Shown one piece after another: positions 3,488-39,445 of a stretch of 64,000 nt of DNA. The position numbers and the translations under genes were made by a program. Location: assembly GCF_044324875.1 (NCBI RefSeq), contig NZ_CP172185.1; one strand, given 5' to 3'. The stretch comes from Escherichia coli. GTDB lineage: Bacteria; Pseudomonadota; Gammaproteobacteria; Enterobacterales; Enterobacteriaceae. The notes under the pieces are model-generated. The model did no database searches. It was given only the letters and a program-made list of their open reading frames with translations, and was not told the origin of the DNA. Within the stretch, counting starts at the first letter, position 1, and every line of letters starts with the position of its first letter.

Positions 3488-3648
3488 GATTTTTCCTCTT
3501 TCACATAGTGGGTTCCACAGCAAAGAGACGTGGAGCCCCGGAGTTGTTTAGGTATCCGGATGAACAACCAGACCGCAGCCGTGGCGTTGCATCGGATGAG
3601 ATGGCGTATAAGTTCTACCTTTTGGTAAGACATGTCAACCCGAATTCT

Positions 3649-3773
3649 AAAATTGGTTAACCACATCACAAGAATTTCACTCTCTTGGTTGTTGCTGCAA
3701 ATTGCAGCAAAGGGTAATCGATGGTTATTGATCAGAGGATGTGACATTCATCGCAACAATGGTTGACCAATTT
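3649..3773. promoter_or_regulatory. Divergent uxuA/gntP control region with two palindromic GntR-family (UxuR/ExuR-type) operator-like sites
   Basis: aaattggttaaccaca at 3649-3664 and aatggttgaccaattt at 3758-3773 resemble the TTGGT-n-ACCAA hexuronate regulon operator. Confidence 0.4.
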
Positions 3774-31156: not shown

Positions 31157-32231
31157 GCCTTGCTGATAACAGCCAGACTCTTGGTTTTCGTGCTCTGATG
31201 GGAGGCTTCAGTCGTGGAACTTCACGAGACGAACTATTGACCAATGAAGGTATGTCGGAACATCTCTGGGAAATGTTCTTCGGGCTAATCAAGCAAAGAA
31301 TGTCCCGATAATTTGCCATATCACAGTCGGGCATACTGCCCGATTTTTGTGCTGTCATTATTGGCAATATCTCAATAGGCGTTGAGAAATGGTGCAATTT
31401 AATCTTGCCAGAGCGCTGTTACTTGGGGACGAAATTAATGGGCTCCTGCTGTAGTTACATCAACGCCTGTCTATACAAAAACAGGCGTAGCAAATTCATG
31501 CAGGCAAATACGTTTTCTTAAGCGGCACCAATAGCTTAGTCTCTATATCCACTTGCTCATAGTTTTCCACTAACGCGCGTACCAAATCATCCAGCGTCCA
31601 TAGCGTCAACGGGATTGTAGAACGATCGGCCTCATAACGCGCATCCTTGCTGAATCCGCCGGTACTAACATACAGCCCGCGATCGTCTTTATGGCGGCCA
31701 CCGATAAAGCTACGGATTTGCTGGCTGCTCATCTGTTCCCGCCGGTGCTTCACCTCAACAATAATGCGCGGATTTTCAAACCCAAATCCGTCAGGGGAAG
31801 CAATGATATCTTTCCCACGGTCAGCACCCGCAGGCGATACCTGAGTTTTATATCCCATGCTACGTAATACGCCAGCGACCAGATTCTGCATCTCATCCCA
31901 GTCGAGACGGTTGATACGATCCTTGATGCCTTCAAAAGCAATCATTTCCATGTCGCGCAGAGGATTAGAAACAACCTCATCCTCTTCACCTGAAACAGGT
32001 ACTTCCGGCACGACATCTGAGACAGGCTTTTTGCCCTGCACTAATTCATTCACGGCAAAATCAGGCACCTGAAAAACTGTCAGCGTTGAGCCAAGGGTGT
32101 TTCTGGTTGCATCACTCAGACTATCGCGCTTAATCTCTTCCGTATTCCACTTCACTTTACGGGCGATGCCCATGCCATCTTCAAGCCACTCGGCATGAAA
32201 CTCAAAATCTGAGGCAATTTTCCCTATTAAA

Positions 32232-33515
<1,284 letters not shown>

Positions 33516-33893
33516 TCCGATTAGAAGGTGAATAAGTGATAGCCCAATCGCCTTTCTGCATTTCATTCACAAAGCGCCAAACCTGAGAAGCACCAGAGCG
33601 AACTGTGCCTGGCTTAGTCTGTGGCTCAAGCTCCTGATACCGGATAAACAACTGCTCTCTTGAGCATCCAGGTTTCACATAGGGAGCGAGCTGCGACCAA
33701 CCAATTGCAACAACCTGTTTGTCTCTGAAGTCGTCGTACAATTTTCCGCCATCACCGCGGATCATCCACATCTTAGTCGCCACAATAATTCCTTCTGAAA
33801 ATACTTCATCGTTATACCGGGACGTGATCATTCCATTCAGCCACCTTATCCAGGGGAAAAACACCGATAAGATGGCTAATCAAAATGTCTGTT

Positions 33894-36800
33894 CTAAACC
33901 TGACGCCTATCAAGACTATTATAAATAGCCTCAATCTCACCTTTCAGGTTATCACCAGAGTAAACCATCGATGTATCGTATCGTTCATATCGCGCTTCCC
34001 GTGTCGCACTAAACCAGTTGAACGATCCCACGCATAGCAAACCATCATCACCAATAACAATTTTGCTATGAACACGGTTTACCAGCTTTGTAGCAATACC
34101 CAGCGCATTCAGTTTCTCCAGCGCCGCTTTAAGGTTCTGCTGCTTCTCTTTTCGCTTCTCAAAATCTTTATGTTCAGTGTTATAGCTTCTGTCAGTGACT
34201 ATCGTGACGTTAATTCCACGTGAACACGCCGCAATCATGGAATCAAGAAAACCCGTTTGCTCCAGCTTTTGCCAGGTCAGCCATGGAGAAACTATCGTGA
34301 TGTGTTTATCGGTATTTTCAAACGTCTGATTCAGGAAATTATCATGCTGCTCCACACCATGGAGTGTGTAGATTTTGGTCTCGGAAGTTTTTAAATCCTT
34401 ACGCTCTTTATAATCAAAAGAGAGCGCATTCTTCTCGGACTCAAAGAGATATTTTGCCAGTAATCCCCGCGGAGATGAGGCTGGCTGGATCTCAAACAGG
34501 TCCATATCGCCGAAGACCAGGAAACTGTCCTTCGCACGGGAGACAGCAACGTTCAGCATGCTGTTATCGCTATCAATAAACCCGCCATCCTCATGCTTTG
34601 AATAGACTGGCGAGAATATAACAATCGCTCTTTCCGCCCCCTGAAGAGAATGCACGGTGCCCACGGTGAGCGACGTTTCATTCGCGCCTGTACTGATGCC
34701 TTGTTTACCCAGCGCCTGTTTGATAGTCGATACCTGCGCGCTAAAAGGCGTCACGATACCGACAACTTCATGAAGCGATTTGCCGTAATGCGCTTCAATA
34801 TCTTGCTGGTTATCTGTCAGCCAGGCAGCTATCGTTTCAGCCTCAAGCAAATTATATCGACTTCCGCTACTTGCCAGCGCTCCTTTACCATCAATATGGA
34901 GATAACCCATTGCGGGCATTAAATTGCTCTCTTCACGCCCTCTTTTAGGCAACAACTTACCGTGATAGCAGAGCGTATTACAGTATCCAATAATATTATC
35001 GAAGCACCGGCGGTGTTCATATAGGTACATACCACGAGCCAGTTCGGGATCATATTGATAGCGCGAAGCAAACTGAGCTATTTTCATAACGCTGCCAGAT
35101 GCGGCACTTTTACCAAGGTCTGCGATTGCCGTATATTTCTCGGTAATCTCTTCTTGCGTACTGCCAGACAGAATTTTTTCCGCCAGCATGTTACCGATAT
35201 CAATCGCAGGAGCAATACTCCATATTGGCGGGATCTGCTCCGTATCGCCAATCACTAATGCCTTCTTAGCTAATGCAAACGAGGCAGCAGCCACTTCAGG
35301 AAGCACCTGTCCGGCTTCATCGACAATGAGTAAATCGGCAAAATCATACAAATAACTTTTCTCGAATTTACGTTGTCCTTTGTGCTCACTTATCTGCATA
35401 TTGCCGGGCAGCATATAGCATGTCATCACCACACATGGAATGAGTTTCATTCGACGTTGCCAACGGGCAGTTACTCCTTTAGCGCCTTTTTTCTTCTTCT
35501 CTTCCTGCAGATCATCAATTCTGGCCATATCCATCAGCCAACGACCTTCCCAGTAGTGAGTCGTCAGTAAAAATGCAGGGAAGCGAATCTGCGTATCAGC
35601 CAGTTCATCGGCCTGTGAGAAGCTCAGTTCCTCGTCGCCCTCATACCCTAAATCAAGTGTCAGCCTCTGCCACTCCTGAACCGCCTGCTGTTCTTTAAGA
35701 ACGATTTCATGGGCGGAGTCAATCTGCTTCCGGTATGTTGTTTGCTCGCGTTCAGCGGAATTGAGCAGCCCATCAATATTACGTTCGATAGTTTCAGGAT
35801 CAGACCACTGATTTCCTGCAATCAGCGCGCCTAATTTATCTTCGAGAAACAGCTGTATTTGGTACTGTCGCTTATTGCGAACCGCCGGGAGCCAGGAAAA
35901 TAATGAATAGATCAGTGATTCACCGGCGCGATATTTTTTCCATTCCGTTTTAGCACTCTTCAGTAGAGTAACTTTTTGTTCTTGCCCGGAGAGTAATTTA
36001 TTTAAATTATCGAGATATTGCTCAATGTTATCAGCAATAAGCTCACGCGCCGCCCGAACCTGGCTTAACGTTTGCCATGTTGCGTTCAGTCTTATCAGTT
36101 GCTCGGATTTTGCTGCCAACTGACCATGCAGGAGTTCAATGACCTTTTCAGGGGATGAACACTCTTTTTCAGGAAAGGCTGCCTTAGCCTTCTCCAGATA
36201 AAACAGCAGTGCATCCTCTACATACTCTTTTGACTCAACCTGGTTGAAGAAATCTTCAGTTTGATATTTTTTGGCGGCCTCAGCTTTACGAGTGCTTGAG
36301 GGAAAATAAGCGCCGAAGCTTTTCAGCTCTGGCAACCATCGTCCGGCCATCGCACCGGTGCCCTGGGAAAAATCTTTCCCGAACGCCTCGATAATGTTCG
36401 TGACAGCCTGGTTATTCGTTGAGGTCGCGATAATGACCGGAGGCTCAGATTTTTCGAGAGCCGCTCGGGCCCACTGCGTGGCGATGATAGAAAGCACCAG
36501 CGTGGTTTTTCCGGTTCCCGGAGGGCCATTAACAGCAAGGATATCGCCATGTCTGGCATCCAGAAAATGGCTTAAGGCATCGCGCTGAGCCTTTGCCAGC
36601 GGAAACTTATCTCCGGAGTGTCCAAGCCTGTCGCTGAATTTTGCTCCTGGGGCCAGCAAAGACTCTGCAGCATGAACCTCTCGCGAGGCGAAGCGATTGA
36701 AGAGTGGCACATCCTTCTTGCAAACAAGCAGGTGATCATAAAGCGAAAGGATATGGAAACTGGCACCGCCAGATTGCGCCGTTTTAACAATATAACCGTG

Positions 36801-37409
36801 CTCAGCGAGTTCATATTGCTCAGGATTTTTAATCCAGTCGCCGGCAACGTTCTTCAGCAGCCTCTCTGAATCATCCAGATATTGACGCCAATCCTGCTGC
36901 AAGGCTGCATATCGTGCTTCCCGTTCTTCATCCGTTTCGGCAGTGTTATCAACGCTGTCATCAAACTTGATAGAGAATGACGTATGTGTCGTTTTATATT
37001 TGTCATACTGCTCAATCTCACCAATCGAAAATGCCCCTTTTGGCAAAGGTTCAAGCAGGTCTCTGGGAATGGAGGTCGCTGGCGTCGGGTATAAAAAACC
37101 CTCACGGCTTAGCAAGGCTGGCGTCACTAGCGGGGTAACAATATCAGGCACGCCTGCGGAACGGTCCTTACCATGCTGCAGTAACCGAAAATAAACTTTT
37201 GGGCGCAAGACGACATCGACCGTTTCGACATCGTCTTTTTCTCCCTCAAAAAATTTACTGACAATCGCTTCGTCAAGACGTCCCGCCGCTATCCCATGCC
37301 AGTGAGTGAAATTTTGGGCGTCTTTCCGTTCAAAGCTGCCCTTTCCTGACTCAGCATCCGCAAGCGAGTTGCGCCAGTATGAGGCAAACCCTAAAGCATT
37401 TTCATCCAT
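33894..37409 (-). CDS. SF1 (Upf1/DNA2-like) helicase fused to a C-terminal PLD-family (HKD) nuclease domain; Mokosh type II-like single-protein defence candidate
   Basis: 1171 aa; Walker [11 protein letters not shown], Walker [10 protein letters not shown], motif [19 protein letters not shown]; C-terminal [19 protein letters not shown] (HxK-x4-D-x6-GSxN). Confidence 0.8.
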
Positions 37410-37734
37410 TACCAGTCCTATGACTCAATGAAATCCATTGATTTATCGAATATAAAATCACCGTATGGATAACTATTGTCCACGTTGAAAGGCTGGCTGC
37501 AATGTTTTGTTCACGCTTCGATACAAATACTCAGGTTATACGGAGTTCAGAAAACGACCATATCATGCTGCATGGCACATAAAAGCTTTATAACCGAAGC
37601 AGCAAAGGATTACCGGCTGCGCAGCACGCCACGAAAGCCCGTGAGCTCTACTGGACAGCGTTCAGTGCAATATTGGAGTCTGTAAGTCCAGAAAATATCA
37701 CTGTCGAAGATGGTTCTGTATGTAGGTGCGCCAG

Positions 37735-38112
37735 CTATTGTTTTGTCCGATGCTTGCGAATAAAAGCATTCAAAATGTCGCCTTCACCATGCATGACAGA
37801 AAAAGAATATTCACATTCTTTCTTTATCAAGATTCCACATAATTCCTTGTGCAAATCTACATTAACTCCCTTTCCTTTCTGTGCTTTCTTCACACCGAGC
37901 TCACATGAACTGATTAATTCAACGTTACAGGGTTTCTTCAAATAATTCACACCATCAATTAAGCCCTGGAGAATGCATCTATTTGCGGTCGTATTACTGT
38001 AGGAGAAGGTCAGATATTTTATTTTCCCTTCACATTCCAGCACAACTTCCGCCGAACCTTCACGTGTTGCAGCATCACAACTTCCTGTTGAATATATTTT
38101 CACCATCTTCAT
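37735..38112 (-). CDS. Small RNase H-like fold protein with apparently substituted catalytic residues
   Basis: 125 aa; VKIYSTGSC, NRCILQG, VNVDLHKEL align by eye to the RNase HI blocks FTDGSC, NRMELMA, KNVDLWQRL, but the D10/E48/D70 positions read T/I-C/S. Confidence 0.45.
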   Translation of the reverse strand: MKMVKIYSTGSCDAATREGSAEVVLECEGKIKYLTFSYSNTTANRCILQGLIDGVNYLKKPCNVELISSCELGVKKAQKGKGVNVDLHKELCGILIKKECEYSFSVMHGEGDILNAFIRKHRTKQ

Positions 38113-38180
38113 TTTGTACCTTTCCCCTTACCAAACGAATCATGACATCCTATATCAAAGGCATTCTCGTCAAAACTTTA

Positions 38181-38960
38181 CTATCTCAGTAAATTCTCCC
38201 GATGCCACTCCAGATAACAATACGATTCAACAGAAAACGCCTTTATTTTCTCCGGCAACAAACATTGCTCTTTAACGCTAATATCCAGCTCCTTACTAAT
38301 TAATAAATGCCCATCGTTCTCAAACGAAATCCATCCCTGATCGAATAGAATATCAATATGCGCAGCCAATATAATTCCATTAAAAGGATCAAGACGTTCA
38401 TTTCCATTCTCGCAGGCAGCCCACGGCTTTATATGGCTGGCACGCAGTAAAGGTGCAAAAGTCGTTCCCGTAACAGGGCATGCCGGATACAACATGAGAC
38501 AATTTTTCCGAAAGGTACCTTGCCCCAGCCGTGCCGCAATCAGCTGCTCGCGTACGGTATCTTCAATACTTTTATCCTGCTGAATAGCAAGACAGTCACG
38601 TTGTGCCTGTTCATCTCTATCAGTCGATATTAACGAAAGAACGCGCTGCTCAATTGCACTATCAGAAAGCACACTCAATCGCTGATGAACACGCTGCGCT
38701 GAATGAGAAAGCGCAGCAGGAGCACCCTGCTCGTCACGCCAACCGACACGCACATCACTAAGCCAGGAATCAAAACGGTCACGACTATTTTTCAGACTAT
38801 TGTGAAACTCGCTGGCAGTTTTGCCCGCTCCAAATCGAGGATAAAACAAGGCAAAAGCCTCTTTCCATTTCTGAACACCCAGTCCTGCGGGTGGTTGAGA
38901 GTTACCATACTTCGACAAATACCACGCCACTTCAAGCAAATCGTCTTCAGAGCTATTCAA
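38181..38960 (-). CDS. HNH-family nuclease with N-terminal domain of unknown function
   Basis: 259 aa; C-terminal CPVTG...LLRASHIKPW...NERLDPFNGIILAAHIDILFDQG resembles the HNH_2-type endonuclease motif. Confidence 0.7.
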   Translation of the reverse strand: MNSSEDDLLEVAWYLSKYGNSQPPAGLGVQKWKEAFALFYPRFGAGKTASEFHNSLKNSRDRFDSWLSDVRVGWRDEQGAPAALSHSAQRVHQRLSVLSDSAIEQRVLSLISTDRDEQAQRDCLAIQQDKSIEDTVREQLIAARLGQGTFRKNCLMLYPACPVTGTTFAPLLRASHIKPWAACENGNERLDPFNGIILAAHIDILFDQGWISFENDGHLLISKELDISVKEQCLLPEKIKAFSVESYCYLEWHRENLLR

Positions 38961-39323
38961 TATTACGTCCTGTTTTTGCAGAGTAAATTATCACCAGATT
39001 ATATCTGAAAAAATCATTTACTAAACTGATCTGCTTACCTGCAAAACGGTACTGCAAACGCTAATACTCAGAACCATTAAAAGGAACAAGCAGGTGCATA
39101 CCGCTGCCATCGGTCAGTTTGTACTGCTTATCCGTTGGCCTGGCTGTTCTGACCTTGATATCTGTTAACGCCATGCTTATCCCCTCCCTGTTGGTACAAG
39201 CATTATCGAACCGGAAATACCATCATCTGTACCAACATGTGTTGGTAGATGTACGTTGATATCGGTTGACCTTGAGAGAGTTAATATAGCGAAAAAGGTA
39301 GGTAACTGCTGGATTTCAGGCAT

Positions 39324-39360: not shown

Positions 39361-39445
39361 TGGTGCCGAAGGCCGGACTCGAACCGGCACGTATTTCTAC
39401 GGTTGATTTTGAATCAACTGCGTCTACCGATTTCGCCACTTCGGC
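39361..39445 (-). tRNA. leuX: tRNA-Leu (anticodon CAA), leuX
   Basis: 85-nt sequence GCCGAAGTGGCGAAATCGG...ATTCAAAAT...GGTTCGAGTCCGGCCTTCGGCACCA on the - strand; anticodon loop contains CAA; encoded CCA end. Confidence 0.9.

Follow-up and report, generated by a model that had tools for sequence, protein, structure and literature searches.

Does a gene for an HNH endonuclease, followed 68 bp downstream by a gene for a small protein resembling ribonuclease (RNase) HI, form a two-gene system with it, or are these separable genes that came to lie side by side in one island? The question is raised by a stretch of 64,000 nucleotides of Escherichia coli contig NZ_CP172185.1 (assembly GCF_044324875.1), the whole of which is called the window below. 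The HNH gene lies at 38181..38960 (minus strand, 259 amino acids (aa), TTG start) and the small gene at 37735..38112 (minus strand, 125 aa, ATG start), with the spacer at 38113..38180 (minus strand, 68 bp). An initial sequence-only reading had described two co-oriented genes with a gap of this size, and both open reading frames (ORFs) were found on the minus strand at precisely these positions. The RefSeq coding sequences match both genes, under the names 'HNH endonuclease' and 'hypothetical protein' or 'ribonuclease H family protein'. The interpretation that is slightly favored here is that the two genes are separable cargo modules of the leuX island, adjacent by chance and probably co-transcribed, rather than an obligate two-gene system, and that the small protein probably binds nucleic acid.

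The small RNase HI-like protein

The small protein was matched in part by the Pfam RNase_H model (residues 3-76, E value 4.4e-5) and by the NCBIfam RNase HI model NF001236 (residues 1-69, E value 2.3e-11), the latter at 43.5 bits against a cut-off of 160, and a profile search of PDB with the protein returned RNase HI at an E value of 3e-7. The AlphaFold2 (AF2) model, made with 53 family sequences, had a predicted local distance difference test (pLDDT) score of 95.5 and the secondary-structure order E-E-E-H-E-H-H-E-H. When the model was compared with PDB using Foldseek, the top 50 matches were all RNases HI, the best being that of E. coli (E value 2.3e-11, template modeling (TM) score 0.76, approximately 25% identity). 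PHROGs assigned the protein to the generic RNase H family only, and no PADLOC model matched it.

Alignment with E. coli RNase HI (RnhA; PDB 1wsj, 2rn2) placed T9 (38086-38088) at D10, I47 (37972-37974) at E48 and S69 (37906-37908) at D70, while D112 may correspond to D134 according to the family alignment. At the level of alignment and predicted structure, the protein is confirmed to have a true RNase H fold but not the catalytic carboxylates. The sequence-only reading, which had called the protein RNase H-like with degenerate acidic positions, is upheld on both counts by the returned fold and by these three residues. Besides the fold, the two proteins share sequence homology over the first ~70 residues, the GSC loop, the TTxN(R) motif and the N-V-D-L motif that holds the equivalent of N100. 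They differ in that the small protein lacks D10, E48 and D70, is 125 rather than 155 aa long, and shows a 16-residue gap where the E. coli and phage RNases HI carry a basic protrusion. T42, N44, N84 and D112 are conserved in it. From the missing carboxylates, cleavage of RNA:DNA hybrids by the small protein is predicted to be negative, and on this alignment it cannot be a two-metal RNase H.

The ratio of nonsynonymous to synonymous substitution rates (dN/dS) for the small gene was 0.30 against another E. coli allele (L002) and 0.12 against an 80%-identical copy (L023). The gene is intact in all E. coli copies (141 genomes) and in all metagenome copies that are linked to an intact HNH gene, and is read as being maintained by selection.

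The family of putatively inactive RNase H proteins

To collect the family, 1.84 billion cluster representatives (50% identity clusters) were searched exhaustively with a profile; 470 of them matched at E <= 1e-3, of which 131 reached E <= 1e-10 and 19 reached E <= 1e-30. Two apparent frameshifted variants (P0005 and P0009) were left out, as they came from an error-rich contig (L024). The D-E-D triad was kept in none of 93 full-length family domains, and an acidic residue of any kind at the three positions was present in three of the 93. Position 9 is occupied by T, V, R, I or L, position 47 by I, M, A, L or V, and position 69 by A, S, H or P, while about half of the members have E or D at position 112. 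High conservation was found at G10, S11, C12, G19, T42, N44, G50, P61, G73, K81, G82 and N84, with G10, G19, N44, G50, G73 and N84 nearly invariant. The family is basic (median isoelectric point (pI) 9.06). In published RNase H-substrate structures, the E. coli residues T43 and N100, equivalent to T42 and N84, form the DNA phosphate-binding pocket, and the GSC loop and the N44 equivalent (E. coli N45) contact the RNA strand. What the family conserves on its surface thus seems to be the former substrate groove without the metal ligands. Because the motif set is distinct and family-wide, with no member retaining D-E-D, the family is not a product of simple decay; judged from the alignment, the loss of the active site is ancestral to it.

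The family is uncharacterized, source annotations giving no functional name, only 'hypothetical protein' or at most 'ribonuclease H family protein'. No description of it was found in PADLOC, PHROGs, NCBIfam names, source annotations or the literature outside subscription journals, and that literature contained no relevant paper on inactive RNase H in defense or plasmid contexts or on Mokosh together with RNase H. A further protein search with the family profile gave no new members and no informative names, and a scan of genome contigs with a narrower family alignment gave only 2 loci. The near clade was not present among 50,697 deposited phage genomes, in which the matches were canonical active RNases HI, and its patterns had no match in the IMG/VR viral contigs.

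The HNH endonuclease

The N-terminal part of the 259-aa protein (residues ~1-120, about 38601-38960) is a helical domain of unknown fold, and residues 123-258 (about 38187-38594) are an HNH_2 nuclease domain with H176, N194 and H201 (Pfam PF13391 at residues 161-214, E value 4.3e-12). The sole solved relative is VcaM4I (PDB 6yex, E value 1.5e-28 over residues 123-258), with which the motifs SH176IKPW, N194G and H201 are shared. The call of an HNH nuclease made in the initial reading stands on this domain and its intact H-N-H motifs. PADLOC returned generic 'HNH' models only, and a weak NCBIfam 'PT-DNA restriction' match was confined to the HNH part. The N-terminal region matched no known modification-sensor class among those searched (PUA/EVE/SRA, SBD, winged helix, DUF3427). 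Paralogues carry the same nuclease domain behind other N-terminal domains, namely PF26340 (the SBD of ScoMcrA), PF12102 and PF26345, and such swapping corresponds, to judge from the domain assignments, to the 'sensor + HNH' modularity of type IV-like enzymes. The HNH gene is under clear purifying selection (dN/dS 0.12-0.20).

VcaM4I is an EVE-HNH modification-dependent restriction endonuclease (PMC7897488). Its C-terminal HNH domain is homologous to that of the window protein, both enzymes combine a sensor domain and HNH_2 in a single polypeptide, and the orthologues of the window HNH protein are solitary in defense islands. The ScoMcrA-type SBD-HNH enzymes, which sense phosphorothioate, are also related, the window HNH domain being 55-60% identical to that of Enterobacter SBD(PF26340)+HNH_2 proteins. 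The window protein differs from them in having no SBD, and the Enterobacter SBD-HNH locus has no RNase H-like gene. From its homology, the 259-aa protein is best read as a putative HNH nuclease of type IV style, solitary and VcaM4I-like, whose helical N-terminal domain is novel. Its target, and any modification dependence of its cutting, we infer from the architecture of the family.

Linkage of the HNH gene and the small gene

Co-occurrence was counted among 5426 complete E. coli genomes. The small gene was found in 142 and the HNH gene in 160 (144 full length), with both genes in 141; a full-length HNH gene without the small gene occurred in 3 genomes and the small gene without the HNH gene in 1. 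Since all E. coli copies of the pair are one island at 95% identity or above, this co-occurrence reflects linkage within a single island lineage.

The HNH gene was found alone in several other settings. Copies of 92% nucleotide identity stand by themselves at the end of E. coli integrative and conjugative elements (ICEs) of the PFL_4669/STY4528 type, beside a Dcm-linked system. Orthologues of 59-65% amino-acid identity are solitary in Salmonella, Yersinia and Kosakonia, where the downstream genes are convergent or unrelated; that of Yersinia follows a DISARM-like cluster. In all of these hosts the orthologue is thus encoded singly, without a dedicated partner, and the Enterobacter SBD-HNH gene is also alone. 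When 13 HNH-only loci and 2 loci with mkoC only were searched with a hidden Markov model of the family, none gave an RNase H-like ORF. Conversely, the small gene occurs without the HNH gene in Klebsiella, Pseudomonas, Pantoea and enterobacterial plasmids. The Klebsiella gene lies upstream of mkoC and is preceded by varying genes, never by an HNH gene.

The limits of homology fall within the spacer. With blastn, the ICE copy (L004) matched the HNH module at 39037..38171, ending within the spacer, and the Klebsiella loci (L008-L013) matched the small-gene/mkoC module at 38153..33513, starting within it. On these breakpoints, the spacer is read as holding a recombination junction between two mobile modules. 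The pair is conserved only in a subclade of at least 80% identity, comprising the E. coli island and one remnant (L023), and is missing for diverged orthologues of either gene. Co-occurrence elsewhere, on which the sequence-only reading depended, was largely not found outside the island lineage. Its suggestion of an operon of two partners is weakly supported: a possible shared transcript, an old junction and parallel decay of the two genes, all described below, speak for it, while the solitary HNH orthologues, the small genes that lack an HNH neighbor and the breakpoints in the spacer speak against it.

A role of the small protein as antitoxin to an HNH toxin was considered and rejected, because the HNH gene occurs alone both at 92% nucleotide identity and as distant orthologues. 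If the two genes are separable modules, as favored here, the HNH protein would recognize foreign DNA by some feature of it, through the helical N-terminal domain, and cut it with the C-terminal beta-beta-alpha-Me domain. The small protein, keeping the RNase H core, the basic charge and the groove residues (the GSC loop, with T42/N44/N84 corresponding to E. coli T43/N45/N100), would bind nucleic acid without cleaving it, the RNA:DNA hybrid being the obvious candidate. Its role would be that of a dispensable accessory or modulator, not of an antitoxin or essential subunit. Both this binding and the accessory role we infer from the conserved residues and the gene distribution.

The leuX island and mkoC

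The leuX region of the window is a classical defense island. The tRNA-Leu(CAA) gene leuX (39361..39445, minus strand; ARAGORN, with an Rfam tRNA score of 59.4 bits) is the attachment site of the island, and the intact island gene nearest to it is the HNH gene. To the left of the tRNA come, in turn, an integrase remnant, the HNH gene, the small gene and mkoC; beyond the tRNA lie ahr and then yjgR. An identical layout was found in RefSeq strain LWY24. The integrase N-terminus remnant between the HNH gene and tRNA-Leu is at ~39064-39174 (position taken from L001 13465-13575); RefSeq lists it as a pseudogene and gives its domain as 'DUF4102 / Arm DNA-binding domain'. Between this remnant and the tRNA, strain M7424 carries an inserted P4-like satellite (integrase, primase-helicase, psu, gop/beta), which the window lacks. 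The only Rfam match was the tRNA, with none in the spacer between the HNH gene and the small gene.

Downstream of the small gene, an intergenic region of 325 bp (37410..37734, minus strand) is followed by mkoC (33894..37409, minus strand), which encodes the 1171-aa helicase and PLD nuclease of Mokosh type II (PADLOC MkoC PDLC03924, E value 0, 1688 bits, full length). The dN/dS of mkoC is ~0.1, and the gene is regarded as a defense gene independent of its neighbor. Left of mkoC are a Mrr-type restriction gene, a TIR-domain gene and a type I restriction-modification system. An IS110-family element of ~1.28 kb (~32235-33512) splits the Mrr_cat-type restriction endonuclease gene that follows mkoC, leaving fragments at 33418..33864 and 31496..32173. 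The transposase ORF of the element (32340..33320, minus strand) encodes 326 aa and matched NCBIfam 'IS110 family RNA-guided transposase' at an E value of 6e-76. The insertion is not present in related strains (L001, L002, Klebsiella). In size and protein length the element presumably resembles IS621.

A query that covered mkoC together with the small gene and the HNH gene matched ~905 of the 5426 E. coli genomes, and only 141 of these carry the small gene. In the mkoC-only genomes the match breaks off 100-146 bp ahead of the mkoC start (~37511-37555; query position 3618-3662); examples are ST131, IAI39 and UM146, in which mkoC lies beside an integrase at tRNA-Phe. A role of the small gene in Mokosh is excluded because of these genomes. 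One mkoC allele (at least 95% nucleotide identity) is found in two tRNA-linked E. coli islands, that at leuX and that at tRNA-Phe by an integrase and the pap operon (ST131/IAI39; L032, L033). In Klebsiella, a widespread allele of the small gene has GGA changed to TGA at codon 10 beside an intact mkoC (L008-L013, L055; ~L008:9950-9962). The assembly collection has this allele in 514 blocks, and gene callers report for it a 102-aa ORF that starts at an internal GTG. Outside codon 10 the Klebsiella small gene is 97.6% identical to that of the window and the adjoining mkoC 93.6%, a difference that suggests a mosaic history. In Enterobacter asburiae (L031 7022-10538), a SBD(ScoMcrA)-HNH gene is convergent with a MkoC-like gene that appears to be split into ORFs of 985 aa and 223 aa, probably by a frameshift. 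An HNH_2-type enzyme and Mokosh II thus occur together in a second, unrelated island, without the RNase H-like gene.

Other contexts and fusions of the family

Carriers of the family are plasmids, ICEs, islands and some phage-like contigs, the last holding distant members. On Pantoea plasmids, RepB/RepA genes are only some hundreds of bp away from the gene, and UmuDC and ParA lie nearby. On plasmids of Klebsiella and Enterobacteriaceae, a gene for a 160-175-aa PLD protein (DrmC/Nuc-like) is followed after 40 bp by the RNase H-like gene and then by SRAP (DUF159), near traX; Pol III theta-like genes are also among the plasmid neighbors of near relatives. In another plasmid-like type, a DUF1173 gene (432 aa) precedes the RNase H-like gene by 41 bp. 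Three plasmid loci (L027 6433-7372, L028 6478-7369 and L034 4661-6378) have the PLD or DUF1173 gene 40-41 bp upstream of the RNase H-like gene and SRAP (DUF159) or a 185-aa unknown gene downstream, with traX a few kb away; in these loci the small gene may be the constant part behind a slot whose gene varies.

In Pseudomonas the family gene stands alone between a retron-like reverse transcriptase (RT) pair and a resolvase; elsewhere it lies beside a Fic/Phd module in one context and after a UvrD-like helicase gene in a low-GC contig. A distant member (149 aa) lies in a tight three-gene cluster, between a gene of 107 aa (91 aa in L081) and one of 382 aa; the cluster was seen in two unrelated samples (L080 4672-6644 and L081 699-2623), with all genes unannotated.

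Fusions were found with GIY-YIG (2-3), DUF559 (1), a DnaG zinc ribbon (1), a GreA/B C-terminal domain (2-3) and MutS_I (1), and at least 13 tandem duplications were seen among multidomain members. One protein (P0185, 389 aa) has an RNase H1-type hybrid-binding domain (Pfam Cauli_VI) ahead of two dead RNase H domains. In a subfamily of 365-397 aa (P0156, P0166, P0178, P0184, P0224; L072 3971-5134), an N-terminal dead RNase H domain is joined to a conserved C-terminal region of ~250 aa, for which no match was obtained in Pfam, PADLOC or PHROGs. A PDB sequence search with a GIY-YIG fusion (P0138) returned only RNase HI and UPF0213 GIY-YIG proteins. CMoRE, which joins GIY-YIG to an unknown C-terminal domain, was considered as a relative of these fusions and rejected, the paper describing no RNase H fold (PMC12923530). 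An analogy with the RnlB antitoxin and the RNase HI-dependent regulation of RnlA was likewise dropped for want of sequence support.

Comparison with other RNase H-like proteins and defense systems

The connection domain of retroviral RT and the RNase H-like domain of Prp8 are RNase H cores without catalytic carboxylates that have been re-used for binding or as a scaffold. Unlike the members of the present family, these are domains of large eukaryotic or viral proteins; the members are free-standing, carried by mobile genetic elements (MGEs), and closer to bacterial RNase HI. Mokosh type II resembles the locus in so far as mkoC directly follows the small gene and is inherited along with it in E. 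coli and Klebsiella, although Mokosh II is a single-gene system and most genomes with mkoC lack the small gene. The SPARHA system, a short Argonaute with HNH (PMC12738770), offers a conceptual analogy only: there, a catalytically inactive RNase H-fold nucleic-acid binder is encoded with an HNH effector. The small protein differs in that it is of the RNase HI type, has 125 aa, no MID/PIWI and no APAZ-type partner, and its pairing is not conserved.

Alternative explanations

Several observations weigh against two modules that are adjacent by chance and against a small protein that binds nucleic acid. The basic protrusion, which helps real RNases HI to grip their substrate, is missing from the small protein. 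The promoter and terminator scan found no terminator-like and no sigma-70-like promoter site on the minus strand of the spacer, so one transcript is possible, the scan being uninformative on transcription units. L023 keeps, at 80% nucleotide identity, the small gene together with the spacer and the final 22 bp of the HNH gene, there behind a different HNH-type gene, an ScoMcrA-SBD-type gene disrupted by an insertion sequence, and the adjacency of the HNH gene and the small gene therefore predates the E. coli island. Three of four lineages that lost the HNH gene also have an inactivated small gene, through the TGA at codon 10 (Klebsiella), a 1-nt deletion (L023) or truncation by IS600 (strain CFSAN004176). 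Relatives occur repeatedly 40-70 bp downstream of nuclease-like genes (PLD, DUF1173, HNH), and members are fused to GIY-YIG or DUF559 nuclease domains; these recurring neighbors and fusions hint at a general role as nuclease partner. The same observations (other than the missing protrusion), together with the common strand, the short spacer and the fusion to a hybrid-binding domain, favor a functional two-gene unit of HNH nuclease and dead RNase H, in which the small protein would be a trans-acting sensor or adaptor (for example of RNA:DNA hybrids or R-loops) that recruits, licenses or restrains the nuclease within a wider 'nuclease + dead RNase H' theme. Such a unit is possible and clearly the less probable explanation, for the HNH orthologues (59-92% identity) are solitary in every other context examined, and many family members stand alone by rep genes, toxin-antitoxin modules or retron-like RTs or in phage-like contigs. 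The parallel decay (n=4) has its exception in L046, where the small gene is intact although the HNH gene has been cut to a remnant of ~35 codons. Few independent contexts were sampled, and adjacency to nucleases could arise by chance in nuclease-rich defense and cargo hotspots.

The family might instead serve MGEs in establishment or counter-defense as a non-cleaving RNase H mimic, the island copy being incidental cargo. It would then shield RNA:DNA hybrids (replication primers, R-loops) or compete with host RNase HI or with hybrid-dependent defenses. Its near relatives on Pantoea, Klebsiella and Enterobacteriaceae plasmids by RepA/RepB, UmuDC, SRAP, Pol III theta-like genes and TraX, the distant members in phage-like contigs, the fusions to the DnaG zinc ribbon and the hybrid-binding domain, and the basic pI would all fit. 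The explanation is nevertheless improbable: the near clade is absent from the deposited phage genomes and from IMG/VR as searched above, the E. coli copy sits in a chromosomal defense island rather than in an MGE backbone, and the literature search gave no support. That the small gene is an accessory or regulator of mkoC would account for their co-inheritance at a constant spacing of ~325 bp and 93% identity in E. coli and Klebsiella, and for the variation of the genes upstream of the small gene in Klebsiella. The many E. coli genomes with mkoC alone, the Klebsiella codon-10 nonsense allele beside an intact mkoC and relatives at 50% identity with no mkoC nearby make such a role very unlikely. 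Just as little credence is given to a decaying rnhA-like pseudogene, an option that the sequence-only reading had left standing. The lost catalytic residues and the broken copies in Klebsiella, L023, L057/58 and L073 are what decay would produce, but the dead site is ancestral to a large family with its own motif set, the predicted fold is compact and of high confidence (AF2), dN/dS is 0.12-0.30, and every copy linked to an intact HNH gene is itself intact.

Significance

The pair of HNH gene and small gene is not in itself a new defense system. Its near-perfect co-occurrence within the species (141/142 E. coli genomes) illustrates that such a figure can be pure linkage in a single island lineage. 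The helical N-terminal domain of the HNH protein is unclassified and enlarges the set of sensor domains in endonucleases of the VcaM4I/ScoMcrA type; it could mean a new DNA-feature specificity that would be useful as a reagent.

It is conceivable, if rather unlikely, that the dead RNase HI family is a portable sensor of RNA:DNA hybrids or R-loops that lies beside or is fused to interchangeable nucleases (HNH, PLD, GIY-YIG, DUF559/Vsr-like, DUF1173), an unrecognized modular class of MGE-borne defense or inter-MGE competition. If so, the HNH and RNase H-like pair of the window would be one instance of the class. The family is in any case a sizeable one of pseudo-enzymes (~470 representatives) in which the active site is uniformly lost and the substrate groove conserved. 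If its members bind hybrids without cutting them, this would bear on the use of R-loops by mobile elements or by the defenses directed against those elements.

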